This document shows, in pieces, positions 12,778 to 28,180 of a stretch of 32,000 bases of DNA. The notes beneath the pieces are model-generated. The model did not search any database. It had not been told where the DNA came from and was given only the letters and a program-made list of their open reading frames with translations. Location of the stretch: NCBI GenBank assembly GCA_963663995.1, contig OY760660.1, positions 240,001-272,000 on the forward strand, in the 5' to 3' direction. The position numbers and the translations under genes are program-made. This DNA is from Erysipelotrichaceae bacterium. GTDB lineage: Bacteria; Bacillota_I; Bacilli_A; Erysipelotrichales; Erysipelotrichaceae. The number at the start of each line of letters is the position of its first letter. Positions within the stretch are counted from its first letter, which is position 1.

Positions 12778-13136
12778 TGAAAGATATCAAAAATATAATT
12801 GACGAATACCGAAATAATGCTGTCTTACACTGGAATGCATCACGTGATGGAAATTATAAAGCTGCTAACAAAAGTTATTCGAAGTTAACCAAAATATATA
12901 AACAATTGATTCAAAGTGAGAAACTAGGTGATAATATTTTATTAAATTTACTAAATGATCAGAATTTTGCTGTTCAATTATGGGCAGCCTCACATTGTCT
13001 TGCATTAGAAAAATCAAAAGAAGTTGCAGTTCAAAAGTTAGAATTTATTTCTAAAATGAATCCAAATGAAGCACCAAGTTTTGAAGCAAGAATGGTACTG
13101 AATGAATGGCGAGAAAAAGGTAGATTGACTTTTTAA
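12777..13136 (+). CDS. Cognate immunity protein candidate for the WHH nuclease tip (DUF2019/HEAT-like helical protein)
   Basis: The start overlaps the toxin stop (TAATG). 119 aa and all-helical. The pattern RDGNYKAANKSYSKL...LLNDQNFAVQLWAASHCL...EARMVLNEWREKG resembles DUF2019-type immunity proteins as I recall them. Confidence 0.6.
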   Translation: MKDIKNIIDEYRNNAVLHWNASRDGNYKAANKSYSKLTKIYKQLIQSEKLGDNILLNLLNDQNFAVQLWAASHCLALEKSKEVAVQKLEFISKMNPNEAPSFEARMVLNEWREKGRLTF

Positions 13137-13296
13137 GTGATGAACTTTTTAGTAATTGGTGCAAATATTGCCGTTAAAATTGCACATAAGATTTTTTCAA
13201 AATCAAAAGGAGTTTGACTTGGTTGTCTGGTTAAACCTTTGAAACACAATGTGCGTCTGGAATGAATGTTTTAAAGCAATTTGAGTTAACGAAGTG

Positions 13297-13416
13297 ATGA
13301 AACTAATAAGTAAAGCAGCTGCCATTGAACTGTATATTTCAAGTTGTAAAATTATGTATGAAGTAACTTTAACAGGTGATTATAAAGCAAATAATAGGGA
13401 AGGTAAAAAATATTAA
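13297..13416 (+). pseudogene. Truncated paralogue of the immunity gene (39 codons)
   Basis: MKLISKAAAIELYISSCKIMYEVTLTGDYKANNREGKKY*. TGDYKANNR aligns with DGNYKAANK of the 12777 immunity protein. The ORF stops exactly where the RHS repeat copy 2 begins. Confidence 0.4.
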
Positions 13417-14255
13417 AGTCATCAAACAGAAGGACTCAGAGAGACAATCTATTCTTATCAAAGCAATATCTTTGGCAATAAGAGTCATTTAACTGAATAT
13501 TATTATGATGGTGATCTCGTCTTTAGTGAATCCACCAGCATGACCTATAACCATCTCAATCAACTTGAGACTTCGATTACATCAGGTGTGACTACAAACT
13601 ACAGTTATGATGATTATGGAAACCTCATTGAAGAGAATGATGGAACCCATAGTATTACCTATACCTATGACTTAAATAACAAGTTGATAGGTGTAGTCGA
13701 TGGTTCTAGTAGCTTAAGTTTCATTTATGATGGAGCAGGTAATCGATTAAGTAAGGTTGTTGATAGTATACAAGTTGACTATGTCAATGACATCACTGAA
13801 GACAATACCAATGTCTTAAGTTATCAAGTAGACTCAGCTACTACAAACCTTGTCTATGGCAATGAATTACTCAGTGAAAACAGTGTTTTCTATTTAAGCG
13901 ATGCTTATGGGAATATTGTTCAACATGGAAGTGAATCCTATGCTTATGACCCTTATGGAGCACTCACTGAAGGAAGTATTGATAGTGTTAATGAAGTCGG
14001 GTACAAAGGTGAAGTACATGATACCAGTGATTTACAATACCTAAGAGCTAGAACCTATAGTACCAAACTTCATCAATTCCTAACTGAAGATACCTATACT
14101 GGTCAAGCAGGATCACCGCTCTCACAAAACAGATACATCTTTGCATTAAACAATCCATTTAAGTATTCTGATCCTACTGGGCATTACTTTGTGGAAGAGG
14201 ATGTTGTCTTAACAGGTTCACAAACAGCTCAAGCAATTCAAAATTCATATGAAAA
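13415..14255 (+). repeat. Copy 2 of the 0.84-kb direct repeat (5' part of the orphan RHS cassette)
   Basis: See 10745-11585. A TAA at 13414-13416 immediately precedes the homologous reading frame. Confidence 0.9.
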
Positions 14256-15642
14256 GGCAACAAGCTCTACAAGTACAAATTCAGGTGCACCTTTGTATGA
14301 TGATTTAGCTCCAACTATTAGACCACCTAAGATTGATAGTGCACCACCACTACTGCCTGGACCTATTTATCTAGCATCACAAGCACTTTTATATGACGAT
14401 TTAGAATATCAAGTTGTTAAATCAAGTCCTGTATTACCTAATAATCAGTCTTATATGTTGAATTACATTAGTCCTGAAACTTTTCAACAAGTTACAGAAT
14501 ATAAACGAAGTTCTATGAGTATTCAAACTGACCCGTATAATACGTATAATGGATATGTTGATTACAAAGGGAACATGACCCGTGAACAACAGAAAATCTA
14601 TGAACAAACATTGAATCCAGCAGCTGCTTTTGATCAATGGAAGAACGAAGATGTTAATCGAAAAGCGATTTTTGATGGGATTGAAACAGTTGTAGGTGGA
14701 GTCGTTACAGCAGCAGTAGGTGTTGGAACCATATTGGGTGCAGCCACTGCAGCACCCATCATCGCAACAATTGTTGGCATCGCTGGTGTTGGTAGTTTAT
14801 TATATGGATTATCAAATGCTTTTGAAGGAATACACAAGCTTAGCTTAGGTTTAAATGGACATGGTGGAGACAGGTCATTTAATCTAATAAGAGACACGTT
14901 GTTCTTAGGAAATAGTGATTTATATCTTTTAGTAGGAGCGACAACTACTTTATTCTCAGCAAGTGGGCTTGGCGCGATTGCGGGTGGTGCAACTAGTGGA
15001 ATGAAGTTTGCTACTAGTGTACTAACACAATTAACGAAGTTTTCAGCAACTGGTGCTTTGTCCATTGGAGTAGGTTCAGTTGTTGAAGCGGCAAGTAAGA
15101 GTGAAACACTAGGTAAATTCGCAGCAATTACAACCGCTATTAAAACCTATCCACACATAAGCAAGGGTATAGATAAAGCAATAAGTGTTGTGAGTGATGT
15201 TGCATCAAATATCTCAAGTTATGTGAATGCTAATAAGGTCAATTCAAAAAATGATTTATATACAGGAGTTAAAGAAGCATCAGAATTTCTCAAGTCACAA
15301 AATGTTCCACGTGATTATAGAAAGCAGATTCTCGAATCATTTGATGTACGAACCATAAAAATGGAAACTGCTGGTGACTCAACTTATGGTATTAGATTTT
15401 ATGGTGGAAATGCTCAAGCAAAAGGTAGATACTTATTTGAAACTTTTTCAAATACGACAAATAGAAATAACTTAGCATTACCTAATCAGTTTAATACTAT
15501 GACAGGATTACAACAATTTCAGGTTAAAAGCGGAACGCAAATGATTACAGGAAATACAGCACCGCAACTACAGTATGGTTCTCAATATTTAGGAGGAGCT
15601 AAGCAATGGTACATAAGCAATTTGGAGGCATTATTAAAATGA
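13540..15642 (+). CDS. Orphan RHS C-terminal cassette: RHS core end, hydrophobic pre-toxin module and an alternative toxin tip (TNT/NADase-like?)
   Basis: RHS-homologous frame is open from 13417, with the first Met at 13540 and no RBS. DPTGH at 14170-14184. The sequence diverges from the main gene after about 14255. C-terminal ~130 aa: YGIRFYGGNAQAKGRYLFE...RNNLALP...FQVKSGTQMITGNTAPQLQYGSQYLGGAKQWY. Confidence 0.8.
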   Translation: MTYNHLNQLETSITSGVTTNYSYDDYGNLIEENDGTHSITYTYDLNNKLIGVVDGSSSLSFIYDGAGNRLSKVVDSIQVDYVNDITEDNTNVLSYQVDSATTNLVYGNELLSENSVFYLSDAYGNIVQHGSESYAYDPYGALTEGSIDSVNEVGYKGEVHDTSDLQYLRARTYSTKLHQFLTEDTYTGQAGSPLSQNRYIFALNNPFKYSDPTGHYFVEEDVVLTGSQTAQAIQNSYEKATSSTSTNSGAPLYDDLAPTIRPPKIDSAPPLLPGPIYLASQALLYDDLEYQVVKSSPVLPNNQSYMLNYISPETFQQVTEYKRSSMSIQTDPYNTYNGYVDYKGNMTREQQKIYEQTLNPAAAFDQWKNEDVNRKAIFDGIETVVGGVVTAAVGVGTILGAATAAPIIATIVGIAGVGSLLYGLSNAFEGIHKLSLGLNGHGGDRSFNLIRDTLFLGNSDLYLLVGATTTLFSASGLGAIAGGATSGMKFATSVLTQLTKFSATGALSIGVGSVVEAASKSETLGKFAAITTAIKTYPHISKGIDKAISVVSDVASNISSYVNANKVNSKNDLYTGVKEASEFLKSQNVPRDYRKQILESFDVRTIKMETAGDSTYGIRFYGGNAQAKGRYLFETFSNTTNRNNLALPNQFNTMTGLQQFQVKSGTQMITGNTAPQLQYGSQYLGGAKQWYISNLEALLK

Positions 15643-15917
15643 TAAACGAGAAAGAATTTGGAGATAAGTATTTAGAATTAATTCAAATTGTTGAAAACGA
15701 ATTAGATTTAGTAAATAAAGGTTTGAATAAGAGATCAAGTCAACAACTAAAAACTATAATAATTGATTTGAAAAAAATGAATATTATCAAGGATTTAAAT
15801 CAATTTATGCCAAGTTATCCTAGATTTATTGTAGATTCTTGGGATTTTGACGATTTGCTAGGCATAGAATTACTAAAATTCTATGAACTCTATAAAAAAA
15901 TACAAATTAATAACTAG
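15639..15917 (+). CDS. Candidate immunity protein for the orphan toxin tip
   Basis: ATG overlaps the toxin stop (ATGA at 15639-15642), with GGAGG at 15624-15628. 92 aa, small and helical. The ORF-track start at 15606 lies inside the toxin gene. Confidence 0.6.
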   Translation: MINEKEFGDKYLELIQIVENELDLVNKGLNKRSSQQLKTIIIDLKKMNIIKDLNQFMPSYPRFIVDSWDFDDLLGIELLKFYELYKKIQINN

Positions 15918-16211
15918 ACAAGTAAGTAAAGACACTTATAAATAATTTATTCTAAGTGCACACTGAACAAAAAATATGGTAATACCGATTTGTTGTCGAT
16001 ATGTTTAGAACCTCAAAAATGTCAATTTGATGTATGTTTGAAATTCTTAGAAGGAGTATTATCAAATCAACAGAAAATTGAAATCACAAGTTGAACTGTG
16101 GTGGAAAACATGAATGGTTATTGTTACCATATACATAGATTTGTTGCCTTATATAGAACTAACAAAACTATATTACTCTTAGGTAACAATATGTCTATCA
16201 AACTTTTCGAA

Positions 16212-16341
16212 CCCCTAGTCCTCCCCTAGTTTTGATATGGGAAGCTGCGGGAAGATTTGGGACGAAATGGCATGAAATGGTAGAGTTTGGGAAGCTTTGA
16301 TGTGTGTGGTTCGATTCCTGTCAAGCGAACCTGCGATTCCT
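16212..16341 (+). repeat. Cluster of short direct repeats at ~10-11 bp spacing plus a T-loop-like remnant
   Basis: CCCCTAGT x2 (16212, 16223). GGGAAG x3 (16239, 16249, 16289). GAAATGG x2 (16264, 16274). CGATTCCT x2 (16312, 16334). GGTTCGATTCC at 16308-16318. Confidence 0.6.
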
Positions 16342-16439
16342 AATTTGAATATGACTAATAAGAAATCTCGTTTAAATTCATAAAACAATCTTTTCTACAT
16401 ACATTTTAATTTTAATATTAAAATATTAGCAATAAAGAA

Positions 16440-16461
16440 ATCGTAACAAAATCGTAACAAA
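16440..16461 (+). repeat. Tandem 11-bp repeat ATCGTAACAAA x2
   Basis: Perfect tandem copies at 16440-16450 and 16451-16461, followed by AAATAAAGAAAATAAAGAAA. Confidence 0.7.
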
Positions 16462-16722
16462 ATCTTATGAAAATAAAGAAAATAAAGAAAAAAAGCCCAA
16501 AAAAGAGGCTAAAAACGAATGATTTTGAAAGAAAAACAATAGAAATAAGGAAAATGGAGAATCCCTCTGAGGACGTGTTGAAAAGGAATTTGTATAGTTT
16601 TTTACATATTTGATTTTTTGATAAACAATATTTATTCTCGTACCTTATCAAGTTCATTATTTAAAAACCGAATTATTTGTCATTACAATAAAGTTATATG
16701 GTACAATTTCATAAAATAGAAG

Positions 16723-17223
16723 ATGAGAAATTGGTTAACAGATAAAATACCAGAAGAAGGATATGAATACAAAGGCTGTTCAGATATTCGAAATATTTTC
16801 GATGAGTGTATGTATGATTATTCAGAATTTAATGGCAAAATTTGTGATATATGTGAAACAAATATAGGGTTTATTTCACATCGTTTTTTTCATCCAATGC
16901 ATATATTAAGTGTACATTCATGTCATAGTTGTGCACAAAAGATTTTGGGTGATTCAAAAATACTTATAGAAAATGAAAAAGAGCAAAATAGAATATATGA
17001 TTTAAAAGTTAAATTTTTAAAACTTGATGGACAAGAAAAACCTAATGGAAATATTGTGATTAACTATGAGGGTAAGATAATAACCATTATGAAAAGCAAA
17101 TATAGTAATGGATATGGAGTAGTTTACAATAATAATTTTATTTGGAAATACTCTGGTAAAACTATTAAAAATATAGAAGTTGCAAAATTAGTTGCATTTA
17201 AGAAATTTATAATTTATGAGTAA
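16723..17223 (+). CDS. Cys/His-rich hypothetical protein (possible zinc-binding)
   Basis: 166 aa with CDICE (C-x2-C) and CHSC (C-x2-C) pairs. No family recognised. Last gene of island 1. Confidence 0.4.
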   Translation: MRNWLTDKIPEEGYEYKGCSDIRNIFDECMYDYSEFNGKICDICETNIGFISHRFFHPMHILSVHSCHSCAQKILGDSKILIENEKEQNRIYDLKVKFLKLDGQEKPNGNIVINYEGKIITIMKSKYSNGYGVVYNNNFIWKYSGKTIKNIEVAKLVAFKKFIIYE

Positions 17224-17252
17224 TTCTGAAAGATTATTTAGTGTTTTAAAAA

Positions 17253-17270
17253 AGTGCAACAAAGTGCAAC
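17253..17270 (+). repeat. Paired AGTGCAAC direct repeats (right arm of island 1)
   Basis: AGTGCAAC at 17253-17260 and 17263-17270, about 105 bp before the att copy. Matches the pair at 5981-6000. Confidence 0.5.
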
Positions 17271-17373
17271 ACCAAACCCTTTCTTTAGTTTCTTTTATTT
17301 GTTTTTATTTCATAAAGTGTCTTAAAAATTACCTTATTTTTAATAAAAAATGTTATTTGTGGTTGGTGTAGTA

Positions 17374-17390
17374 TCCCATCATCCGCTCCA
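17374..17390 (+). repeat. att core copy 2 (17/17 identical to the tRNA-Gly 3' end)
   Basis: TCCCATCATCCGCTCCA, followed by the hairpin AAGCCC-ATAAAA-GGGCTT plus a T-run (17401-17423). Confidence 0.9.
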
Positions 17391-17474
17391 TATGACATTT
17401 AAGCCCATAAAAGGGCTTTTTTTGTTGTAAAATCGAGTAAAACTATATAAAATTCTATAAAATTTAAATCTATA

Positions 17475-17502
17475 TGACCCAGTTGGGTCATATCTGGGTC
17501 AC
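17475..17502. repeat. CTGGGTCA motifs, left arm of islet 2
   Basis: TGACCCAG (inverted, 17475-17482), TTGGGTCA (17483-17490), CTGGGTCAC (17494-17502). Confidence 0.6.
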
Positions 17503-17686
17503 AGAGATAACTCAAAATCATATTTTATCTAACATTTTTATATTATATTAGTGAAATATGATTAAATATTAACTTGTCTTTACAATGTTGAGACTATTAA
17601 TTAACAATAGATTCATTAAGTAAAATTTTATAGGAATGATGCTATAATTTAATTGTTATTACAAATAGTTGTTTTGGGGGTATTCA

Positions 17687-18406
17687 ATGTTGAAATTAGA
17701 TAGAAAATACATGCTTATTTATGTGTTTGTACTATTTTACTCTATATTTCCTAAGTTTATATTTAATAATACAATCGAATTTACATATACTTTCATGATA
17801 TTTATTACGCTTTTAATAATAGGCACTTTTATTTTTATGTACATTGATCTTCTCAAAAATAAAGATGTACTGAAAAATATAAAAAATGTAAGCACAATTG
17901 ATAAAGTATATTCTTTAATTAAGATAATTGTTATAAACTTGTTTGTTTTTATAACAGCTTTCTTGTTGTATTTTATCTCAGGCAATGTAATCAGACTTAT
18001 TACTGAGCTTATGAAAAATAATAGTGTTAATATATCTGCAATCTTTGATTTTCATCCAAGATTTAATATATTTGTTATTGTGATCGCTGGTATTTTTGGT
18101 TCACTATATCCTGTTTTCGTTATTAGTTTATATCTGATTTTTATTATTCTATATTTGTCAAAAGAAAGTAAATATAATTGGTACAATTCTCATTTCATGC
18201 TTTTCGTTTTAGTTTCGATGACTTTGTATTTTATATACACAATTTGGGAATTTTTTATATCAATTAATTCAACTTTTAGTATATTTCGTTTAGATTATTT
18301 TCTTTACTCTTTAGTGATAACAGTTTTTCCATATTTACTTTTTGTTAAACGAAAGAAATTAATGAATCTTATTTTCAAATACACATGTAATATTAACTAT
18401 TTCTAA
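17687..18406 (+). CDS. Polytopic membrane protein, unknown function
   Basis: About 7 hydrophobic segments and no recognisable motif. The ORF-track start at 17669 is a TTG; the first ATG is at 17687. Confidence 0.5.
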   Translation: MLKLDRKYMLIYVFVLFYSIFPKFIFNNTIEFTYTFMIFITLLIIGTFIFMYIDLLKNKDVLKNIKNVSTIDKVYSLIKIIVINLFVFITAFLLYFISGNVIRLITELMKNNSVNISAIFDFHPRFNIFVIVIAGIFGSLYPVFVISLYLIFIILYLSKESKYNWYNSHFMLFVLVSMTLYFIYTIWEFFISINSTFSIFRLDYFLYSLVITVFPYLLFVKRKKLMNLIFKYTCNINYF

Positions 18407-18525
18407 AATTTAATATCATTATATTTTTCTTATCAAGTTCAAACTATATCACTAGCTGATGATGATTGTATTTATAATAATAGAAATTAGTTTTCATTAA
18501 AGAAAATTAAAAAGGGGGATTAATT

Positions 18526-18987
18526 ATGAAAATAGGTATTAAAAAAACAGTTTATACATGCGCTTTATTTTCAGTTGGATTATTTATACTCAATTTTTAT
18601 GTTTCTCTGTACATGTATATGGAAGAGGCTGCATACAAAATTGAAGTAAACAAAGTAGTGCAACTACATTACCTTGCGATGATCATATGTTTTATTTTTG
18701 GAATTCTTATTGAATCAAACCGTATCATTGCGTTTTTACAGAAAAAAATTCAATTTAAATTGACTGCAGTATTCATAATCGGTTTGATAATGTTTTCAAT
18801 CGGATTAATTTCAGCCACAACTTATATAAGTTGGTTTGGATTAGAGTTTTGGCAACCATTTCCTAGAGGAAGAATAGGTATTAACATGTTTGTTGGAATA
18901 TTAACTAAAACAATTAGTATTCAATCCATATTAAGTGTTGTTGGAGGTACTTTGGTTGTTAAAGGATTATTTCCAGACAACTATTAA
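18526..18987 (+). CDS. Polytopic membrane protein, unknown function
   Basis: 153 aa with about 4 TM segments. Strong RBS AAGGGGGA 7 nt upstream. Confidence 0.55.
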   Translation: MKIGIKKTVYTCALFSVGLFILNFYVSLYMYMEEAAYKIEVNKVVQLHYLAMIICFIFGILIESNRIIAFLQKKIQFKLTAVFIIGLIMFSIGLISATTYISWFGLEFWQPFPRGRIGINMFVGILTKTISIQSILSVVGGTLVVKGLFPDNY

Positions 18988-19085
18988 TGTAATAAGATAT
19001 TAAGTTTTTTAATACAATGGAAAAACATGAGTGGATATTGTTACCATATGTATAGATTATAATTATGTTTATCACAAATTATTTA

Positions 19086-19105
19086 CTGGGTCACAGCTGG
19101 GTCAC
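19086..19105 (+). repeat. CTGGGTCAC x2, right arm of islet 2
   Basis: Copies at 19086-19094 and 19097-19105 (11-bp period). This begins a ~145-bp block conserved with 22275-22416 and 24285-24427. Confidence 0.7.
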
Positions 19106-19211
19106 GAAATACCAAATATCTTAATAAATCTTATTAATTTATGTATAATCATGTTATAGAATATTCAGTTTTATTGCGTTATATTTGGTTTTACAAGTGG
19201 TAATTGGTAAG

Positions 19212-19228
19212 TCCAATCATCCGCTCCA
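19212..19228 (+). repeat. att core copy 3 (16/17)
   Basis: TCCAATCATCCGCTCCA, followed by the hairpin AAGCCT-ATAAAA-AGGCTT plus a T-run (19239-19261). Confidence 0.85.
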
Positions 19229-19409
19229 TAAGAGATTTAAGCCTATAAAAAGGCTTTTTTTGTTATAAAATTTAACAAAACTGCATAAAAATTCATGAAA
19301 CATATATCTTTATGAGCCAGATACACATCGTATATTTTTTATGTAACTACATGAACTATGATTATGATTATTTTTTTGAAACACTGTTCTTTAAAAGTAT
19401 CCGTTGGAG

Positions 19410-20648
19410 TTAATTGCTATACATCCAATTCAAAAGGGTTATTTTCTCTTTATAATAAATGATGGCTACTTTGTACTTGCTTCGATTTTCATAATATGTA
19501 ATCAGTCGATCTAGTACGAATTCATAGTTTTCAAAATTCCGTGTATCTTTAGTTATTGAATGAAGTTGAAGCAGTTTAGATTCAAGTTTAGTTTCATTGT
19601 TGCTATATTCACACTGTATAATCTCCATTTCGAGTTTGTACATTGGATCAGTAAAACTGAATATTTTATTTTGATAGAGTTGATTAGCTTCTTGTGTCTG
19701 ACTTAATTGATAAAGACATGAACACTTAATAAAGATTCCATTTTCTGATAATTCTTGTTCAAGTTCTATTTGTTTTAAATATTCTAATGAGTCTTTATAT
19801 TCTTTATTTAGAAATGAGAACCAAGCTAGATTGTAGAGGATGACAATCTCTGTTTCTGTATCTAGAGTTGTCGAAAGAATCCGTTTGTACATTTTTTGTG
19901 ATGTTCTAAAATGTCCTAACTTTGAATTTATAGAAGCACTATGGATTTGCATATGTGTTAGTCGTTTTAGATTGCGTGTTTTAAGAAAATAATCCTCTGC
20001 AATTTCACTCAAAGACAAAGCTTTATTTAGTTTTCCATAATACGTATAAATAAACGATGCATGGTAATGAATTAATCCAGCGCTACTTTCTCTAGTTTCA
20101 TATTGAAGGGCACGATCAATCGTATTAACCGCTTCTTGAATTTGATTGTTTTTAAGAAGTTCAATCGCTTTGTAATCATAGTATAGCTGTTTGAGTTCAA
20201 TCTCAAAAAGATGGACATTTTTAATCACATATTGATATGAATCAAGATCATAATGAAGACCTAATATATGCAGGATATAAAAGATTGTATGATATTGATT
20301 CATAACTTCTGAGTAGAAGATATACTGATTGGCTAATCTTACTTGATGAATCAATCTTTCAATTTCTATTTCATTATCGAAAATGATAGATTCTAATAGA
20401 TCATTCAAATCTTCATTGAGTTTATCTTCAATATAAAGCACTGATTCTAAGTTAATATTTAAATATCGTGCTAAAGTATGAATGTTTTCTTGATTGAGAT
20501 CTCGTAATCCAATTTCGTATTTAGAAAGACTTTGATAGCTGTAACTTGTTAGTTCTGATAACTCTCTAAGCGTAAGATTTTTCTGCTTACGAGCATCAGA
20601 AAGAAGTTTTAAGATATTGATGTTTTGAAAAGTTAGTTTGTCGCCCAT
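19410..20648 (-). CDS. RNPP/Rgg-like transcriptional regulator (N-terminal XRE-type HTH and C-terminal TPR-like helical repeats)
   Basis: HTH: KQKNLTLRELSELTSYSYQSLSKYEIGLRDLNQENIHTLARYLNI. This is followed by ~350 aa of helical-repeat sequence (e.g. AGLIHYHASFIYTYYGKLNKALSLSEIAEDYF, ILYNLAWFSFLNKEYKDSLEYL). The ORF-track start at 20714 is a TTG; the ATG at 20648 (MGDKLTF) is conserved in the paralogue. Confidence 0.7.
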   Translation of the reverse strand: MGDKLTFQNINILKLLSDARKQKNLTLRELSELTSYSYQSLSKYEIGLRDLNQENIHTLARYLNINLESVLYIEDKLNEDLNDLLESIIFDNEIEIERLIHQVRLANQYIFYSEVMNQYHTIFYILHILGLHYDLDSYQYVIKNVHLFEIELKQLYYDYKAIELLKNNQIQEAVNTIDRALQYETRESSAGLIHYHASFIYTYYGKLNKALSLSEIAEDYFLKTRNLKRLTHMQIHSASINSKLGHFRTSQKMYKRILSTTLDTETEIVILYNLAWFSFLNKEYKDSLEYLKQIELEQELSENGIFIKCSCLYQLSQTQEANQLYQNKIFSFTDPMYKLEMEIIQCEYSNNETKLESKLLQLHSITKDTRNFENYEFVLDRLITYYENRSKYKVAIIYYKEKITLLNWMYSN

Positions 20649-20753
20649 AATTAGTATAATTATACAATTCAAATTTGAAATTGTCCGAAATTTGTAGACA
20701 AGATCGTTTCTCAAATTAGATATAATTGATATATAAGAAAGGTGGGTGGCTGA

Positions 20754-20813
20754 ATGATTGAACTCTACTACTTAATAATCGATTTGTTTGATATGGTATT
20801 GCCTAAGTTTTAA
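20754..20813 (+). CDS. Unannotated 19-codon hydrophobic peptide ORF (candidate SHP-like signalling pro-peptide)
   Basis: AAAGGTGGGTGG RBS 4 nt upstream of the ATG. Encodes MIELYYLIIDLFDMVLPKF. Divergent from the regulator across a 105-bp intergenic region. The paralogue at 22856-22915 differs at 5 nt: 4 synonymous and 1 Leu-to-Ile. Confidence 0.55.
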   Translation: MIELYYLIIDLFDMVLPKF

Positions 20814-20865
20814 GACTAATAAGAATTTATTAAAATGTCATGATTATGACAATGAAAGGGAGTTT

Positions 20866-21948
20866 ATGAGAATTCTAAAAAGTTTATTTGTTATATTGTT
20901 TTTCATTAGTTTGACTAGTCCAGTGAATGCGAGCACTGATGAGATTACATTTCAAGATAATTTCAATTATAATGGGCACGATTATAAAATGGTAATAGAG
21001 TATTTGAATCCACAAAGAGAATTAAATGATTTTTTGTCGAATCATTCCGAATTTTATAATGATATTTATTTAGCTTTTGGTGGCATTAGTTTAACTGAAA
21101 GTAGTATTTCTTCATTTAAACTGAAAGAAAATGAATTATATACAAATAATTTGCAAAAATATTTGGAATTCTCCGATGATTTTGATGATTTCAATTCATT
21201 CTTAGATATTTACGAAAACACATTTATTAATAGCTCCATAAGAAGTTATGTGAATTTAAAATCAGTTGATGAAAATATTAACTATATTTTCGAAAATTTA
21301 CCATATGATGAAGCTGTATTGTTTAGAAGTAATAATTTAACTTTATTATCAAGTACAATAAGTAAAAGTACTAGAGCTATAAAGAATATATCAGCAGGTG
21401 TTTCCTATGCTCAACAATATGCTTTAGCTCCTAATACAATTGACAAATATAATTATTTTCTAGGCACGGATTGTACAAATTTCGGATCACAAATAATGGA
21501 AGCGATGGGTGTCTTACAAAACTATCCTGGAACTAATGATGCATATAAAGGTTGGTGGCATAAAATTACAAAAACTTATAATCCTTATACAAACTCTTAT
21601 GATTATACACACTATTATTCATCTTCCTTTATTAATACACAATCATTTGCATTGTATTTTGGTATTTACAATAAATACACATCATTTTTAACATTCAGTC
21701 AAAATGTAAAAGTGGGTGATTTTATTTTGATTGATGAAAGTAGAGATGATGCTTGGGATCATCTTGGATTTGTAACATCAATATCACCAAGTTCGAGTAC
21801 TTATATTGATGAGAATGGCGTAAGTAGAACGTATTATAATTTTAAAGTTGCTCAGCATTCAAGCAATTATCATGCATTTGTAAATTCTAGTACAAATAAT
21901 TGGGAACAAAAAAACAATACAAGAACATATGGTATTCTTAAGAGATAA
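20866..21948 (+). CDS. Secreted protein with a C-terminal putative amidase domain (Amidase_6 / NlpC-P60-like Cys-His)
   Basis: GGGAG RBS, then MRILKSLFVILFFISLTSPVNA|S signal peptide. The C-terminal half has YAQQYA...GTDCTNFGSQIMEAMGV (21469-21483 encodes DCTNF), VGDFILID...WDHLGFV and VAQHSSNY, matching the DCTNFvSQ...H pattern of the putative amidase domain family. The ORF-track start at 20788 is an upstream TTG in non-conserved sequence. Confidence 0.65.
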   Translation: MRILKSLFVILFFISLTSPVNASTDEITFQDNFNYNGHDYKMVIEYLNPQRELNDFLSNHSEFYNDIYLAFGGISLTESSISSFKLKENELYTNNLQKYLEFSDDFDDFNSFLDIYENTFINSSIRSYVNLKSVDENINYIFENLPYDEAVLFRSNNLTLLSSTISKSTRAIKNISAGVSYAQQYALAPNTIDKYNYFLGTDCTNFGSQIMEAMGVLQNYPGTNDAYKGWWHKITKTYNPYTNSYDYTHYYSSSFINTQSFALYFGIYNKYTSFLTFSQNVKVGDFILIDESRDDAWDHLGFVTSISPSSSTYIDENGVSRTYYNFKVAQHSSNYHAFVNSSTNNWEQKNNTRTYGILKR

Positions 21949-22195
21949 GTGGAAAATAATCGTTTGTACTATTTGGCTAATAGTATTTATATTTGATTAT
22001 GGTTCTGTGTTAAACGGAAAAAAACCTACTTTTATTGTTCCTGTTGAATTTCAGTTTAATCTTGATGAGGCCAAATATCTGTATATAGGATTGGGGTATG
22101 GGGTTGTCTATAAAGAATATCCTCCTGAAGTCATAATTGTTCAGGCTGACTTCTATATTTTATGTTTTAAGATACAGTCAATAAATTCTTACTGA
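21929..22195 (+). CDS. Small membrane-anchored protein (possible immunity/partner of the amidase-domain protein)
   Basis: 88 aa with one N-terminal TM (IIVCTIWLIVFIFDYG). Overlaps the upstream gene by 20 nt. Confidence 0.4.
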   Translation: MVFLRDKWKIIVCTIWLIVFIFDYGSVLNGKKPTFIVPVEFQFNLDEAKYLYIGLGYGVVYKEYPPEVIIVQADFYILCFKIQSINSY

Positions 22196-22274
22196 TGTTA
22201 TGTTTTGATATTTTGTTGTTATTGTTTTGCATATAATAAATGAAAGTTGTGAAATAGGACTCATTTTTTGTACG

Positions 22275-22294
22275 CTGGGTCACAACTGGGTCAC
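22275..22294 (+). repeat. CTGGGTCAC x2, right arm of islet 3
   Basis: Copies at 22275-22283 and 22286-22294. Confidence 0.7.
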
Positions 22295-22399
22295 GAAATA
22301 CTAAAAATCTTAGTAACCTTATAAATTCATGTATAATCTTGTTATAGAATATTCAGTTATATTGCGTTTTATCAGGTTTTACAAGAGAAACATGGTAAG

Positions 22400-22416
22400 T
22401 CCCATCATCCGCTCCA
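22400..22416 (+). repeat. att core copy 4 (17/17)
   Basis: TCCCATCATCCGCTCCA, followed by the hairpin AAGCCT-ATAAAA-AGGCTT plus a T-run (22427-22450). Confidence 0.9.
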
Positions 22417-22588
22417 TAAGAGATTTAAGCCTATAAAAAGGCTTTTTTTTGTCGTAAAATTGAACAAAACTACATAAAAATTCATAAAACTTATATCTTT
22501 ATGACCCAGATGGTTAATATATATTTTTATGTGACTACCTGAATTATGATTATGAATATTTTATTTGAAACGATGATCTTTAAAAATA

Positions 22589-22750
22589 TTATAGGGAGTT
22601 AATTGTTATACCAATTTCGTATTTAGAAAGACTTTGATAGCTGTAACTTGTCAGTTCTGATAACTCTCTAAGAGTAAGATTTTTCTGCTTACGAGTATCA
22701 GAAAGTAGTTTTAAGATATCAATTTTTTGAAAAGTTAGTTTGTCGCCCAT
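22589..22750 (-). pseudogene. Truncated RNPP-like regulator (HTH only, 53 codons)
   Basis: MGDKLTFQKIDILKLLSDTRKQKNLTLRELSELTSYSYQSLSKYEIG is near-identical to the N-terminus of the 19410-20648 product, then a new short tail. The ~1.08-kb TPR-coding part is missing, and the junction is at CCAATT (22611-22616). Confidence 0.7.
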
Positions 22751-22855
22751 AATTAACATTATTATACAACTCAATTTTGAAAATGTCCGAAATTTGTAGA
22801 CAAGATCGTATCACAAATTAGATATAATTTATAAATGGGAAAGGTGGGTGGCTAG

Positions 22856-22915
22856 ATGATTGAACTCTATTACATAATAATCGATCTGTTTGATATGGTT
22901 TTACCTAAGTTTTAA
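22856..22915 (+). CDS. Second copy of the 19-codon hydrophobic peptide ORF
   Basis: The same RBS (AAAGGTGGGTGG). Encodes MIELYYIIIDLFDMVLPKF. Confidence 0.5.
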   Translation: MIELYYIIIDLFDMVLPKF

Positions 22916-22967
22916 GACTAATAAGAATTTATTAAAATGTCATGATTATTACAATGAAAGGGAGTTT

Positions 22968-23624
22968 ATGAGAATTCTAAAAAGTATATTCGCATTATTG
23001 TTTTTCGTTAGTTTATTAAGTCCAGTCAGTGCGAGTACTAATGAGATATTTGTAGGTGAAACTACTGTCACAAATATAGAAATTGATGGGATTAATTATA
23101 CATATACACAATATTCCACAGAATCAAGTAATTTTATGTTAGTAGATGATGGTAATTCTATAGATATATTTGAATATAATTTACAAACAAATATATTATT
23201 AATGAATAATGAACTATTTGGGATTACTAGGTTTACTACATCATATAGTAGAGCAGCTTCTTGCACTATTCCTTTACTAACTGGATTAAGAGATGAACAA
23301 GGGAATTTAGCTGTTTATGAAGGTTGTGCAACTTCAAATATTCCAGTTGGAACTGCTACAACAGCAGCACTTGCTGCAAAATCAATTTTCACAGGTGTGC
23401 CTGTAATTGTTATTCAGAACAAACTATTATCATACCTTGCAAAAACAGTACTACCTCTATATTTAGACAAAGCAATGTCATCTGCAAGACAACAGTATAG
23501 ATCTAAATATACTATGCTAGATCCGTATTCTGGATTGTATAAATATAAGAGATTATATAATTCATATATATATGTAATAAATTATAAATTGTATGGTCCA
23601 AGTGCGTCAGGTTGGTTCTTTTAA
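22968..23624 (+). CDS. Secreted protein of unknown function (shares its signal peptide with the amidase-domain protein)
   Basis: MRILKSIFALLFFVSLLSPVSA|S is homologous to the 20866 leader. The mature part is unrelated and no family was recognised. Confidence 0.55.
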   Translation: MRILKSIFALLFFVSLLSPVSASTNEIFVGETTVTNIEIDGINYTYTQYSTESSNFMLVDDGNSIDIFEYNLQTNILLMNNELFGITRFTTSYSRAASCTIPLLTGLRDEQGNLAVYEGCATSNIPVGTATTAALAAKSIFTGVPVIVIQNKLLSYLAKTVLPLYLDKAMSSARQQYRSKYTMLDPYSGLYKYKRLYNSYIYVINYKLYGPSASGWFF

Positions 23625-23635
23625 TTCGCTAAATT

Positions 23636-23932
23636 ATGAAAAAAATTCAATGTCCACATTGCCAATTTAAATTAAATAAATCGACTATTCTTAGTTTGAT
23701 TTTGTTTGATGTCAATTGTCCAAATTGTAAAAGTCGCTTAGGATTTATTAAAGGAAAAAGAACACAACCAATAATAGTTTTGATTATATTAATAAGTTAC
23801 AGTGTAATAAAAACAGAGTTGATAATTTATATAGCATATTCTTTCCTAATATGGAACTTAGGTTCGTTATGGGATATTTACAAAAATGGATTATATGAGA
23901 TTGATTCACATAATAGTTGTGAAAATGATTGA
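23636..23932 (+). CDS. Zinc-ribbon membrane protein
   Basis: CPHC...CPNC pair at the N-terminus, followed by two TM segments. 98 aa. Confidence 0.45.
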   Translation: MKKIQCPHCQFKLNKSTILSLILFDVNCPNCKSRLGFIKGKRTQPIIVLIILISYSVIKTELIIYIAYSFLIWNLGSLWDIYKNGLYEIDSHNSCEND

Positions 23933-24284
23933 TTAATAATCTTTAAATTAATAAAAAACATAAAATATAATATGATAAAAAAGCAAAGATTAGTAACTTG
24001 TTAGAAGTTTATTGTAATGTAAAAGAACTAGTTACAAGTGAATGCTATTGATGATTTTATAAGCTAAGTGAACCATTCAATGAATCACTTGGTTTTAATT
24101 TAGAGTTGATTTATTATTATTTTCGTTTGAAATGTAATTTAAAATATTTTGTCTTGTTTTTGTAATTTTCCACCTAATTATAATTAATTAGGATATTTGA
24201 GTTAATGGTTTATGGTGGTGAAAAGATATATGTAAGTATTAATACTATGTAAATAGAAGAAAAATATAAATTATGCTTAATGTG

Positions 24285-24304
24285 CTGGGTCACAACTGGG
24301 TCAC
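24285..24304 (+). repeat. CTGGGTCAC x2, right arm of islet 4
   Basis: Copies at 24285-24293 and 24296-24304. Confidence 0.7.
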
Positions 24305-24410
24305 GAAATACTAAATATCTAAATAAATCTTATTAATTCATGTATAATCTTGTTATAGATTATTCAGTTATATTGCGTTTTATTTAGATTTACATGAGGT
24401 AAATGGTAAG

Positions 24411-24427
24411 TCCCATCATCCGCTCCA
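24411..24427 (+). repeat. att core copy 5 (17/17), distal boundary of the accessory region
   Basis: TCCCATCATCCGCTCCA, followed by the hairpin AGCTCC-TTATA-GGAGCT plus a T-run (24439-24461). Confidence 0.9.
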
Positions 24428-24501
24428 TATGATACTTCAGCTCCTTATAGGAGCTTTTTTTGTAAAGTTTTAAGTATTTTTTATGAAGATTATTTCATTT
24501 G

Positions 24502-24537
24502 TTGACATACCTAGAAAACTATGTATCATATACATAG
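24502..24537 (+). promoter_or_regulatory. padR promoter region with a 19-bp palindromic operator candidate
   Basis: TTGACA at 24502-24507. Perfect inverted repeat CTATGTAT-CAT-ATACATAG at 24519-24537, containing ATGT...ACAT half-sites, overlaps the expected -10 region just upstream of the GGAGG RBS. Confidence 0.4.
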
Positions 24538-24548
24538 GAGGTCTAGGT

Positions 24549-24896
24549 ATGAATAAAGATTATATTGGTGCTGGATCAAACTTACTTGTTTTAACGCTTA
24601 TCAGCCGTAAAGATATGTATGGTTATGAGATTATCAAGAACTTAGAAATAATGTCTAAGAACGTATTTAAATTCAAAGAGGGTACTTTGTATCCAATTTT
24701 ACATCGATTAGAAAAAGATGGGTTTATCAAATCTTATCAAAGTATAGCTGATAATGGTAAAACTCGTAAATACTATCAGATTACTTCAAATGGCTTAAAA
24801 CAACTATCACTTGAACAAAAGAATTGGTCACTATTTAAAACATCCATCCAAAATATATTAGAGAATTTCACATATGACTTCTCAGAACAAGTCTGA
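24549..24896 (+). CDS. PadR family transcriptional regulator
   Basis: LLVLTLISRKDMYGYEIIKNLEIMSKNVFKFKEGTLYPILHRLEKDGFI...NGKTRKYYQITSNG is the PadR winged-helix signature. GGAGG RBS at 24536-24540. The ORF-track start at 24483 is upstream of the promoter-like sequence. Confidence 0.85.
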   Translation: MNKDYIGAGSNLLVLTLISRKDMYGYEIIKNLEIMSKNVFKFKEGTLYPILHRLEKDGFIKSYQSIADNGKTRKYYQITSNGLKQLSLEQKNWSLFKTSIQNILENFTYDFSEQV

Positions 24897-25608
24897 ATAT
24901 ATCAAACGAGTATTAAAGGAAATCTATTTCACCTTTGATCGTAAAAAAATTAAAAAAGAACTTATGGATCATATGGAAGACTTGGAGCAAGATTTCCTAA
25001 GTTCAGAGCTTGATGTTGAGAAAAGAGAAAAACTAATCTGTGAGGAGATGGGTGATCCTACAGTTATAGGCAAAGTTCTTAATCAAATTCATAATCCATG
25101 GCTAGGTTATCTATGGCTTATTTCAAGGATTCTAATGCTTTGTTTAATATTTTATTCAGCCAGTTATTTTGGAACAACCTATGCTCAAAGAAGTTTGTAT
25201 TCAACAATTAATGACGATTCAAATTTGATAATGAGTGACGTTGTTCATACTGAAGTTCTTCAAGACTATAATGTTCATGAAGTTTTTATGCTTGATGACT
25301 ATAAAGTTATTTTCGAACGAATTTTTATAACGGATAAGCAACAATTAGTCTTTTTAATACAAGATATTCGACCACTAAATTTACTTAAACCTTACACTAT
25401 TAATCATGAGTTTTATGCTTATTCTTCTATAGAACTTGCTGATAACATCATCATTAAGCCAGACGCCACTTATTTGTTTGAATTATATCAAAGCTACTTT
25501 GTAGTTCGCTTTGATATTACTGGATTAAATACAGATGAATTTATTTTTATGTTTGAACAAGGAGTACATAAGTTTCAATTTAATTTTAATCAGGGGGATA
25601 TACAATGA
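24874..25608 (+). CDS. PadR-associated membrane protein (DUF1700/HAAS-like N-terminal domain)
   Basis: N-terminus YIKRVLKEIYFTFDRKKIKKELMDHMEDLEQDF...EEMGDPTVIGKVL, then a TM segment and an extracytoplasmic domain. This architecture is typical downstream of padR. Overlaps the padR 3' end. Confidence 0.55.
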   Translation: MTSQNKSEYIKRVLKEIYFTFDRKKIKKELMDHMEDLEQDFLSSELDVEKREKLICEEMGDPTVIGKVLNQIHNPWLGYLWLISRILMLCLIFYSASYFGTTYAQRSLYSTINDDSNLIMSDVVHTEVLQDYNVHEVFMLDDYKVIFERIFITDKQQLVFLIQDIRPLNLLKPYTINHEFYAYSSIELADNIIIKPDATYLFELYQSYFVVRFDITGLNTDEFIFMFEQGVHKFQFNFNQGDIQ

Positions 25609-26981
25609 AACGATTTTACAAATTAATTATTAATATTCTAGTAATCTTTACACTTATTACCCTGGTGCTTTATTCAAAGGGGTATCGATTAAGTGCTGAA
25701 TCTGCATCCAAAATATTCGTGGAAAAAAACTTCTTAAATTCATCAACACTTATTGATAAGGTAATGATCGATAATTATGGTATATTTTTGTATCAACAAG
25801 AAAATGTACGTGCTTGTAGTGTGGTAGAAAAGAAATTCTATTTATGGAAAGAAAATACATATAACGTAAACGAAGCTAATTTTGGTAACTTCACATATGA
25901 TATAGAACAATACCAAGGTGAAGATTTAGATTACATGGATGATCAATGTTTAAGTGCTTATGATATTTACTACAATACTGATTTAAAAGACAAAATGAAA
26001 ATCAAAAATATTGTGGAAGCATATGATAACCCCTTTATAAATAGTCCGATCGTATATCAATTAATAAATAGGGTCGAACTTGGAAAATATCAAAACGAAG
26101 ATGAATTTGACGAGAATCTGACTTTAAAAGAATATCAAACAAACATTTATAAGAAAAATATGGTTACTGTTGATGAAAACTTTGGATTATCTTATGGTAC
26201 TGCCTACCTTGATAATTCAATATATTTACAAGTTGTTTTAAAAGACGTCAATTTAATGATATCAATTTCTTACACTTTTGATTATGCGAACATGGATCAG
26301 GTATCCGTAAAAGAAGCATATACTTTTAAAGATCAGTTGACACAAAAACTGAGTGATTATTTCATATCACAAAATGATAAAGCATTTTTTGAATCACTTG
26401 AAGATAAAGAGATGTATGGAATATTTAATGAATTCAATCGTTCCGTGGGATTAGCAGTCACAAATATTCAATATAATATTTGGTTTCAAGAGGGTGATTA
26501 TGAAAATAGTTCAGAAATGATAGTTGTTGATACAAAAGAAAAATATGCTGAATATTCTGGTTTATTGCTGGTAGAATCAGATTTGGATTTTAATCAAATT
26601 ATGGAATCAAATTATTCTGACTTAATGGATTTATATGGTTTTGTGGATTTATTAATTGAGTCTTCTGATAAACAATTGATTCAGATTAGAAGAAATGATT
26701 TTGTAAAACTGATAGAAGACATTGAAGTCGATGAAAAGGCATATCTTACTGTCGGTATATTTGCCTATTATGCTTCTGATTTTGAAACATTGTTAAATAC
26801 ACCTGATTTATTAACTGAAATAAAAAGAGTCGCTAATGAGGTTTATGAGCCAGTTGATATGATTGAAGATGTTAGAGCAATGCAAGAAAAATTAAATTTT
26901 GCTTTAGCAGATCATTTTGGAATCAATAGAAACAGAATGAGAGTTATAATTACAACTTTTGTTCAAGACTTCCCTGGATGA
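25605..26981 (+). CDS. N-terminally membrane-anchored protein of unknown function
   Basis: 458 aa with a single N-terminal TM (LIINILVIFTLITLVLY). Start overlaps the upstream stop (ATGA). No family recognised. Confidence 0.5.
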   Translation: MKRFYKLIINILVIFTLITLVLYSKGYRLSAESASKIFVEKNFLNSSTLIDKVMIDNYGIFLYQQENVRACSVVEKKFYLWKENTYNVNEANFGNFTYDIEQYQGEDLDYMDDQCLSAYDIYYNTDLKDKMKIKNIVEAYDNPFINSPIVYQLINRVELGKYQNEDEFDENLTLKEYQTNIYKKNMVTVDENFGLSYGTAYLDNSIYLQVVLKDVNLMISISYTFDYANMDQVSVKEAYTFKDQLTQKLSDYFISQNDKAFFESLEDKEMYGIFNEFNRSVGLAVTNIQYNIWFQEGDYENSSEMIVVDTKEKYAEYSGLLLVESDLDFNQIMESNYSDLMDLYGFVDLLIESSDKQLIQIRRNDFVKLIEDIEVDEKAYLTVGIFAYYASDFETLLNTPDLLTEIKRVANEVYEPVDMIEDVRAMQEKLNFALADHFGINRNRMRVIITTFVQDFPG

Positions 26982-27415: not shown

Positions 27416-28180
27416 ATGTGGTCGAGATCAGAAGTTAAGAAGTATGCTAAGGACTTTTTAAAAGGAAATTATTGGAAAGCCTTTTTTGTTATTTTTATTG
27501 GGACTATTTTAGCAAATGGATATGATTTAGTATCAAGTACAAATGGAATATTTGATTTACAAATCAATATTCAATATATATTGGGACAACAAATTGATGC
27601 ACCAATTAGAACGGATGAATACTTCCAATTATTTGGGACTTTATTGAATCAATTTAAACCCTATGCATTTTTTGGTTTAGGAATTATTACCCTATCTTCA
27701 CTGGTGATTACGATTGTTGTAATTTTAGCTGGAAGTATTTTAAATGTTGGCATTAAAAAGTTCTTTATTGATGGTTTTGAAAAGGATATTAATATCAATA
27801 AATTATTCTTTGGATTCAATTTAAAAGATTACATACCTATCATAAAGGCACAACTTTTATCAACGCTTTATATTATTTTGTGGACATTATTTTTTATTAT
27901 TCCTGGATTAGTAAAAATCTATCAATATCGATTTGTACCGTATATTTTAGCTGAAGATACAAGTTTAGGTGCTAAAGAAGTATTAAAGAAAAGTAAAGAA
28001 ATAACGAATGGACAAAAAGCGAAAATGTTTATCTTAGATCTTTCATTTTTTCCATATTATGTTTTGAATCTTATCACTTTTGGTTTATCAAGTTATTTCG
28101 TTGAACCCTATATTCAGGCAAGCTTCGCTCATCTCTATAAAATACTGTCTAATGATCAAGATGGATTATTATCTGATTAA
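27416..28180 (+). CDS. DUF975 family membrane protein
   Basis: The N-terminus MWSRSEVKKYAKDFLKGNYWKAFFVIFIG and multi-TM layout match my recollection of DUF975. GTGGGGGA RBS upstream. Confidence 0.55.
   Translation: MWSRSEVKKYAKDFLKGNYWKAFFVIFIGTILANGYDLVSSTNGIFDLQINIQYILGQQIDAPIRTDEYFQLFGTLLNQFKPYAFFGLGIITLSSLVITIVVILAGSILNVGIKKFFIDGFEKDININKLFFGFNLKDYIPIIKAQLLSTLYIILWTLFFIIPGLVKIYQYRFVPYILAEDTSLGAKEVLKKSKEITNGQKAKMFILDLSFFPYYVLNLITFGLSSYFVEPYIQASFAHLYKILSNDQDGLLSD

Follow-up and report, generated by a model that had tools for sequence, protein, structure and literature searches.

We analysed a window of 32,000 nucleotides from an Erysipelotrichaceae bacterium (GenBank assembly GCA_963663995.1, contig OY760660.1, positions 240,001 to 272,000; the window is this whole stretch, and coordinates refer to it unless another contig is named). 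Behind a tRNA-Gly gene, two small neighbouring elements, islets 3 and 4, carry the same regulatory head and continue into unrelated secreted proteins (cargos), each followed by a small membrane protein (partner). We are largely confident that the locus is a modular secreted-protein cassette driven by quorum sensing. Its best overall explanation, which we modestly favour, is a cassette controlled by an RRNPP-type receptor and peptide, with an antibacterial exoprotein, an immunity partner and exchangeable modules. On the narrower point that cargo and partner are an antibacterial toxin and its immunity protein, the sequences leave the scales close to balance, tipped if at all towards this assignment. 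The features are collected in Table 1.

Table 1. Features of the tRNA-Gly region and of islets 3 and 4, in window positions.
Feature	Position	Strand	Description
tRNA-Gly(TCC)	5859-5932		last of the tRNA cluster
Island 1	5933-17390		tyrosine integrase at 6062-7366
Islet 2	17391-19228		no integrase
Multi-TM proteins of islet 2	17669-18406, 18526-18987		245 aa and 153 aa
Islet 3	19229-22416		no integrase
Attachment (att) core, left border of islet 3	19212..19228	+	tRNA-Gly 3' end with one mismatch
Regulator, islet 3	19410..20648	-	412 aa; start at conserved MGDKL ATG; XRE-type HTH and NprR-like TPR domain
25-bp block, islet 3	20682..20706	.	exact repeat
Candidate pro-pheromone ORF, islet 3	20754..20813	+	19 codons, MIELYYLIIDLFDMVLPKF, ends LFDMVLPKF
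Cargo A	20866..21948	+	signal peptide 20866-20931 (cleavage VNA/S), 338-aa mature protein, C-terminal Amidase_6
88-aa partner	21929..22195	+	overlaps cargo A stop by 20 nt
Right arm, islet 3	22235..22444	+	CTGGGTCACAACTGGGTCAC direct repeats; att core 22400-22416; terminator 22427-22444
Islet 4	22417-24427		no integrase
Regulator remnant, islet 4	22589..22750	-	53-aa HTH ORF from MGDKL ATG; ~46 codons homologous; no TPR domain
25-bp block, islet 4	22784..22808	.	exact; TAGACA 22797-22802, TATAAT 22823-22828
Candidate pro-pheromone ORF, islet 4	22856..22915	+	MIELYYIIIDLFDMVLPKF; one substitution, L7I
Cargo B	22968..23624	+	218-aa precursor; 22-aa signal peptide (cleavage VSA/S); mature ~196 aa
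98-aa partner	23636..23932	+	CxxC-N20-CxxC zinc ribbon, cytoplasmic; weak full-length TIGR04104 match
Right arm, islet 4	24246..24455	+	last att core 24411-24427, terminator

Results and Discussion

The shared head

The homology of islets 3 and 4 up to the signal peptide, which the initial annotation had described, is borne out by two comparisons: a repeat search paired 20509-20808 with 22611-22910 at 91%, and pairwise alignment gave ~91% identity for 20512-20945 against 22611-23047, beyond which the sequences are unalignable. The similarity stops at the signal-peptidase site. Within this head lie the first ~46 codons of the regulator, the divergent promoter region, a 25-bp block, the 19-codon open reading frame (ORF) of the peptide, two ribosome-binding sites (RBSs) and a 22-aa signal peptide; TGTAGACAAGA, CCTAAGTTTTAAGA and AGTCCAGTNARTGC follow one another as landmarks. 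The 25-mer TGTCCGAAATTTGTAGACAAGATCG occurs twice in the window in exact form, where none is expected by chance. Its islet 3 copy had been placed 5 nt off, at 20677-20701, and its islet 4 copy correctly.

In islet 3 the block covers the -35 element of the regulator promoter (CGGACA-N17-TATAAT, with CGGACA on the minus strand at 20687-20682) and also a -35-like TAGACA (20695-20700) of the peptide/cargo promoter, whose spacer to TATAAT (20721-20726) is unusually long at 20 nt. Both TGTAGACAA and the -10 element are invariant in eight aligned heads, and the layout TAGACA-N20-TATAAT recurs in relatives with receptors of 30-33% identity. We regard the block as a probable operator, to which binding is predicted. 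The RBS of the peptide ORF is AAAGGTGGGTGG in both islets and that of the cargo ATG is AAAGGGAG. A terminator scan found no terminator-like site from the peptide ORF to the cargo; the first same-strand site is the terminator that derives from the tRNA and lies where the islet ends, from which we infer a single autoinduced transcript for pheromone, cargo and partner. Chance similarity of the heads was considered and rejected in view of the exact 25-mer, the conserved promoter layout and head identities of 68-93%.

Unrelated cargos behind one head

A constant head with variable cargo had been anticipated, and this is indeed what we find in related contigs, which were gathered through the regulator and cargo proteins (labels L001-L019): five cargo families (A-E) without mutual relationship stand behind the head, the partners co-vary with the cargo, and orphan partners are kept. 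Cargo A with a partner of the 88-aa family is present in the window, in L018 and as a fragment in L016, and cargo B with one or more zinc-ribbon transmembrane (TM) proteins in the window, in L001 (two copies) and in L015. Cargo C (~255 aa) is followed by a 58-aa TM protein in L002. In L004, cargo D (187 aa) is succeeded by two small genes, one for a TM protein of 73 aa and, behind it, one for a homologue (87 aa) of the islet 3 partner. Cargo E (167 aa) occurs in L005, with a TM protein of 86 aa behind it, and in the fragment P0014.

Pairwise, the heads of six loci are 68-93% identical, whereas the first 300 nt of the cargos are ~50% identical, which is the random level; the exception is the comparison of like with like, where the first 300 nt after the signal peptide reach 75% for the same cargo. 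BLASTP among cargos A-G detected no mutual similarity. The islet 4 head is 89% identical to the islet 3 head and 76% to that of L001, where the cargo is also B, and the eight aligned heads are internally mosaic, which means that head and cargo have separate histories. As the variable segment of the islets lies between two homology flanks, the conserved head and the conserved right arm, the head, which reaches from the 5' end coding for the HTH as far as the signal-peptidase site, and the arm may serve as the flanks by which cargo-partner pairs are swapped.

Orphan partners were seen in several arrangements. In L017 the Amidase_6 protein is cut to 141 aa, without the Cys region, beside an intact 100-aa partner; in L010 cargo B has neither head nor signal peptide and the zinc-ribbon gene is intact; L004 holds its 87-aa partner without any cargo A; and L009, L012 and L014 have a zinc-ribbon partner without any cargo. 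All genes are under purifying selection, with ratios of non-synonymous to synonymous substitution (dN/dS) of 0.11-0.34, and they overlap or abut.

Some further observations concern these loci. Contig L017 (1240-7542) holds two heads and one truncated receptor, as the window does; one head leads to a B-like cargo and a 250-aa zinc-ribbon multi-TM protein, the other to an ABC exporter, the 141-aa Amidase_6 remnant and the 100-aa partner. Further on lie a secreted Peptidase_C39_2 protein and a 186-aa membrane protein, with which two ORFs behind the L008 pheromone gene have …FGFYY… in common, by eye only. Cargos C, D and E contain Ser/Thr-rich alternating stretches, for which an aerolysin-like beta-pore identity is suspected and not claimed. 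A profile of the shared signal peptide, run against 5.8e9 proteins, returned three candidates with one match (P0014, the cargo E fragment) and was uninformative.

Cargos and candidate immunity partners

Behind its 22-aa Sec-type signal peptide, MRILKSLFVILFFISLTSPVNA followed by S, cargo A carries the amidase domain that had been noticed from the pattern DCTNF…H: Pfam Amidase_6 matches residues 175-335 with E 3.7e-13 (50.3 bits, gathering cut-off 23.2), the Cys lying in GTDCTNF and the His in WDHLGF, and a CHAP match is weak. Amidase_6 is a papain-like peptidoglycan amidase family of the NlpC/P60-CHAP group, grouped with the type VI secretion effector Tae3 (PMC10318531). The L018 copy of cargo A is 96% identical in amino acids (dN/dS 0.11). 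A PDB sequence search with cargos A, C, D and E gave no match, and a PHROG search none for any cargo. The 88-aa and 98-aa TM ORFs are as initially described. The 88-aa protein (dN/dS 0.17-0.29) has one N-terminal TM segment and a ~60-aa domain predicted to be extracytoplasmic (N-in, topology inferred). This would place the domain where a secreted amidase acts, which we count in favour of immunity. Its family follows the Amidase_6 cargo in the window, in L018 and in the distant L017, and stands as an orphan in L004.

Cargo B is unrelated to cargo A, as had been stated, with no BLASTP similarity between the two; the 218 aa given for its mature form belong to the precursor. Its signal peptide is MRILKSIFALLFFVSLLSPVSA followed by S, its conserved C-terminus reads RQQYRSKYT…GPxxSxWxF, and hydropathy shows a hydrophobic segment inside the protein (residues ~130-150) with a basic one after it. 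Profile searches had been suggested for both cargos; they recognised a domain in cargo A, and for cargo B they found no Pfam, NCBIfam or PHROG match. Cargo B belongs to an orphan family, of which five homologues turned up among 5.8e9 proteins and eight cluster representatives among 1.84e9 (dN/dS 0.25-0.32). In its 98-aa partner, the CxxC-N20-CxxC ribbon is accompanied by a ~30-residue hydrophobic stretch (44-75), which we read as two TM helices. Zinc-ribbon TM proteins follow cargo B in the window, L001 (two copies), L010, L015, L017 and L019.

An Agr-type locus in L019 (3-2714) directly precedes P0023, of all cargo B homologues the most distant, and a multi-TM protein with a zinc ribbon. In this locus AgrB is recognised by Pfam PF04647, and a histidine-kinase fragment has no Pfam match and is AgrC-like by position only; a small ORF beside AgrB is AgrD-like in our own reading, without tool support. 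The position of this pair suggests that density control recurs with a non-homologous quorum-sensing system.

Taken together, the cargos would most likely be antibacterial exoproteins, A being a peptidoglycan amidase of bacteriolysin or fratricin-like type and B perhaps membrane-active, and the small membrane proteins downstream would most likely be the cognate immunity factors. The cargo-specific partner families and the orphan partners beside truncated or missing cargos fit immunity by analogy, and the Rhs toxin-immunity island at the same tRNA (see below) is counted for antagonism as well.

Several points weigh against a pheromone-driven toxin-immunity cassette. The window shows neither an Opp system nor an exporter for the pheromone. 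In Pfam, nothing credible appeared at E<=1 for cargos B-E or the small partners; B-E are without a recognisable fold, and AlphaFold2 models were unusable for mature cargo A (single sequence, mean local confidence pLDDT 31.7) and for cargo B (five sequences, pLDDT 36.7). Because its internal hydrophobic stretch is followed by a basic segment, cargo B could be a type I anchored surface protein and not a released toxin. An 84-aa zinc-ribbon protein with two TM helices directly follows the pheromone gene in the cargo-less L009, L012 and L014, so the zinc-ribbon proteins may belong to the signalling module. Between window 20866-22195 and L018 4322-5648 the partner has diverged more (72% identity, synonymous divergence dS 0.53) than cargo A (96%, dS 0.17); this three-fold higher dS is not as strict co-evolution predicts, and apparently the partner gene either was replaced by exchange or changes at a far higher rate than cargo A. 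Finally, the Amidase_6 members of Bacillus subtilis, YhbB and YjcM, are not known toxins; they are uncharacterised candidates for cell-wall hydrolases, governed by sporulation or motility sigma factors (PMC10653849).

The possible anchoring of cargo B, the zinc-ribbon proteins of cargo-less quorum-sensing modules and the B. subtilis amidases also speak for a different reading, in which quorum sensing controls self- or host-directed exoproteins (an autolysin, release of extracellular DNA or biofilm, surface or colonisation factors) and the small partners are anchors, chaperones or signalling accessories; RRNPP systems such as NprR and PlcR often control exoproteases and virulence factors (PMC10075063). 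We nevertheless consider this unlikely. At least five unrelated cargos are swapped behind one head, their partners are cargo-specific and kept when the cargo is truncated or lost, and the cassettes sit on mobile islets adjoining an Rhs toxin island, while housekeeping functions rarely show strain-level presence and absence or module swapping.

Receptor and candidate pheromone

RRNPP receptors have 250-500 aa, a peptide-binding TPR domain and usually an HTH (PMC10075063, which also gives the pro-peptide criteria and the SHP/ComS grouping). The 412-aa regulator belongs here because its HTH matches Pfam HTH_3 (E 4.6e-10) and a profile of 11 of its homologues matches the TPR domain of NprR (PDB 4gpk, 5dbk) over positions 73-407 (E ~1e-4). 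Among 5.8e9 proteins a search found just 13 homologues, all without a name, and the gene has a dN/dS of 0.13. Judged by its domains, the regulator is an NprR-like RRNPP receptor of an undescribed subfamily.

Divergently oriented and 105 nt from the receptor start, the peptide ORF has a strong RBS and the position of an adjacent RRNPP pro-peptide gene, which in such systems codes for 10-100 aa and has an RBS. RRNPP pro-peptides leave the cell through Sec or, in the case of SHP/PrgQ, through PptAB, and are matured. Its length of 19 codons and its VLPKF end are constant in seven close loci, as in L001 (MIVFYCCVIDLFDTVLPKF), L002 (MDNLYQFIIDMFDLVLPKF), L004 (MIELYHLIIELFDMVLPKF) and L005 (MTELYYLINNLFDMVLPKF). 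A PK[F/I/L] C-terminus persists beside receptors that are just 30-40% identical: the L008 peptide ends …SVIPKI, and the two of L017, MEILITWLFETSAYKYPKL and …TFVYKYPKL, both end YKYPKL. In L009, L012 and L014, where receptor identity falls to 30-33%, a 35-aa peptide with a Sec-type leader ends …DWVHPKI or …DWVYPKI. The N-terminal half and the mode of export thus vary among relatives and the C-terminus is kept; the close-subfamily peptides are SHP/ComS-like, without a Sec leader, and in L017 an ABC exporter gene directly follows the peptide gene. An exact DNA pattern of the peptide 3' end had no match in JGI metagenomes. The co-conservation of the C-terminus with the receptor family is our main argument that the 19-aa ORF looks like the cognate leaderless pro-pheromone of the receptor, with export and maturation predicted. 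In this way the NprR-like receptor, together with the conservation of the pro-peptide ORF over 30-100% receptor identity, lends support to the peptide regulation put forward by the initial annotation.

In the mechanism that we propose, the 19-aa leaderless pro-peptide would be exported and trimmed to a C-terminal fragment ending VLPKF, which the NprR-like receptor would bind after re-import. The receptor would then act at the 25-bp block, which lies between the divergent promoters, and switch on one transcript for pheromone, cargo and partner; the outcome would be positive feedback and a density-dependent release of cargo.

One may alternatively see the small ORF as an upstream leader or attenuator peptide and the regulator as a conventional XRE repressor of a mobile element, of the phage or integrative and conjugative element immunity type. 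The HTH does match PHROG phage-repressor families, the element is att-flanked, and the peptide has no basic N-terminus of the kind typical of SHPs. Even so, this is improbable: the regulator matches the NprR peptide-binding TPR domain over its full length, conservation is concentrated in the peptide C-terminus across the whole range of receptors while the N-terminal half and export mode change, and in L017 the peptide gene is followed by an exporter gene. Moreover, neither the arm pattern nor the regulator profile had a match in IMG/VR viral contigs, so that a phage or satellite origin is unsupported.

What had been taken for a regulator in islet 4 is merely a 53-aa HTH stub, a remnant. Since islet 4 has lost its receptor and kept an operator identical to that of islet 3 and a pheromone gene nearly so, the pheromone-receptor mechanism would here probably work in trans, with the islet 3 receptor firing islet 4. 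That islet 4 is instead a dead cassette, a decaying partial duplicate of islet 3 whose head reflects recent duplication only, is the least probable of the alternatives, very improbable in our view despite the truncated regulator and the headless cargo B remnant of L010, as its promoter/operator, RBSs, peptide ORF, cargo B and partner are all intact, cargo B does not derive from cargo A, other genomes conserve cargo B and its partner under purifying selection, and L017 independently combines a full receptor with a second head that has a truncated one.

Islets at tRNA-Gly

The cassettes had been called tRNA-targeting, and this is well founded. The 17 nt at the 3' end of tRNA-Gly(TCC), TCCCATCATCCGCTCCA, are repeated together with a terminator at 17374, 19212, 22400 and 24411, so that five copies of the core (the tRNA gene and four repeats) bound four elements, island 1 and islets 2-4. 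The region is chromosomal, and the GC content of the window is low (~27-37%). Islets 2-4, of 1.8-3.2 kb, have a left arm of ~90 nt in common, which in islet 3 follows the att core at its left border, and a right arm of ~170 nt that includes CTGGGTCACAnCTGGGTCAC. GGGTCAC, the repeat of the islet arms, occurs nine times against 0.8 expected; the ends of island 1 bear GTGCAAC repeats instead. An Rfam scan of the window returned six tRNAs only, and the conserved right arm matches no known RNA.

Direct att repeats at a tRNA gene, with integrase and transfer genes not found in islets 2-4, are features of cis-mobilisable elements (CIMEs), whose concept and tandem accretion are reviewed in PMC5704250. 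The islets fit integrase-less, att-flanked cis-mobilisable elements stacked in tandem at tRNA-Gly, with mobilisation as a prediction only.

Elsewhere, the 3226-bp contig L005 carries the tRNA-Gly core at both ends together with the GGGTCAC arm, and in L015 the region 3' of cargo B and the arm are the same as in the window. L018 contains a 3.28-kb segment (2542-5823), 91% identical to window 19087-22370, at a different, non-tRNA chromosomal site, flanked by homologues of the 458-aa gene (25605-26981) and the DUF975 gene (27416-28180) of the window. In L001 and L007 a B cassette stands between unrelated genes, and core and arm were not found there. From the same cassette at another chromosomal site in L018 we conclude that, as far as sequence comparison can tell, the cassettes move between sites. 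Within the left end of the L018 segment are an arm and a tRNA fragment, and its right end has a truncated arm.

Island 1 carries a classical Rhs toxin-immunity region (7786-15917), which adjoins the islets at the same tRNA. It consists of a 1663-aa Rhs protein (7786-12777) followed by a 119-aa gene and an orphan 700-aa Rhs C-terminal module (13540-15642) followed by a 103-aa gene; a 300-nt repeat of 99% identity (10745-11044 and 13415-13714) ties the orphan to the main gene.

Other neighbours complete the picture. Islet 2 has the same arms and no head, and encodes two multi-TM proteins only, without family match, perhaps from orphan genes of the immunity type. The right end of island 1 holds a 166-aa Cys/His-rich ORF without family match (16723-17223). 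A 37-nt sequence (16105-16141) is repeated at 19022-19058, just before the right arm of islet 2, and is perhaps what remains of another islet border. The backbone resumes right after the last att copy with a PadR-family regulator (24483-24896) in a PadR operon; 3' of it, within 24483-26981, are overlapping 244-aa and 458-aa ORFs without family matches.

Implications and comparison with known systems

A bolder generalisation, to which we attach tentative weight, would make the locus an undescribed plug-and-play antagonism platform of Erysipelotrichaceae-like Bacillota, in which a private quorum-sensing head of NprR-like receptor and leaderless peptide, with a fixed Sec signal peptide, is the recombination scaffold that captures unrelated exoprotein-immunity pairs on integrase-less mini-islets accumulating at tRNA-Gly, with cargos B-E and the zinc-ribbon and 88-aa partners as new antibacterial toxin and immunity families. 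If the cargos are antibacterial, they would add several new secreted toxin and immunity families from a poorly studied lineage so far known only from metagenome-assembled genomes and metagenome contigs, and tiny integrase-less islets would be seen to build an antagonism hotspot at a tRNA gene beside an Rhs island. If the proposals hold, one would also have a new receptor and pheromone of the RRNPP type together with their defined operator, a polymorphic effector system whose constant part is a non-coding regulatory region plus a signal peptide, and a compact natural chassis from which arbitrary proteins could be secreted on induction by a peptide.

The initial annotation did not recognise the combination as a described system. 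This is true of the assembly, which is unusual, and not of the principle, as a quorum-sensing peptide with a secreted killer and immunity is known from fratricins and bacteriocins. Fratricins and bacteriocin loci under quorum sensing are the nearest functional analogues, activity being predicted here. In fratricin systems a peptide-pheromone circuit induces a secreted CHAP or papain-type murein hydrolase together with membrane-associated immunity, as in CbpD-ComM (PMC9910801) and in ScrM with its Fem-like immunity protein (bioRxiv 10.1101/2024.09.27.615381). The present locus differs in that the hydrolase gene and the putative immunity gene are neighbours that immediately follow the pheromone gene, in its Amidase_6 domain, with choline-binding and SH3 modules not detected, and in being an exchangeable module on a mobile islet.

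Loci for large Sec-dependent class III bacteriocins (bacteriolysins) and Blp loci likewise place a secreted antibacterial beside an immunity gene, often under peptide quorum sensing, and Blp/pneumocin loci join a conserved leader to highly variable mature peptides, with orphan immunity genes being common. Unlike in Blp, the constant element is here a Sec signal peptide and not a double-glycine leader, the cargos are proteins of 145-338 aa from unrelated families, and the regulator is of RRNPP type and not a two-component system.

Known RRNPP pairs (NprR-NprX, Rgg-SHP, ComR-ComS) share with the locus a cytoplasmic HTH-TPR receptor that adjoins a small pro-peptide gene, and the short, leaderless, hydrophobic and divergently transcribed pro-peptide resembles SHP group I and ComS by the criteria of PMC10075063. 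In contrast to NprX, which is Sec-exported and encoded downstream of nprR, a leaderless peptide stands beside an NprR-like receptor, and in contrast to known RRNPP systems, pheromone, cargo and partner would form one operon.

Polymorphic toxin-immunity logic, which the initial annotation had invoked, applies in part. As in Rhs, CDI (contact-dependent inhibition) and LXG systems, a constant 5' part is followed by a variable 3' effector and a small co-varying downstream partner, and extra or orphan modules retain a piece of the constant region for recombination. In the strict sense of Zhang and Aravind, a large multidomain protein with a conserved N-terminal trafficking or scaffold part and a variable toxin domain at its C-terminus, the locus is not a polymorphic toxin, because the shared protein part is only the 22-aa signal peptide. 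Apart from a separate peptide gene, the head is mostly non-coding; a delivery apparatus and a repeat scaffold are absent, and the extra cassette keeps its own promoter.

Like CIMEs, finally, the islets are att-flanked, without integrase or transfer genes, and share one tRNA gene, in a tandem array, with an island that has an integrase; unlike CIMEs, they are very small, their GGGTCAC arm repeats differ from the GTGCAAC repeats of the neighbouring integrase island, and one copy occupies the non-tRNA site of L018. What we find unusual across these comparisons is an NprR-like receptor paired with a leaderless peptide, pheromone, cargo and partner in what appears to be one operon, and regulatory DNA with a signal peptide as the putative constant recombination scaffold for unrelated large exoproteins on tiny integrase-less islets.

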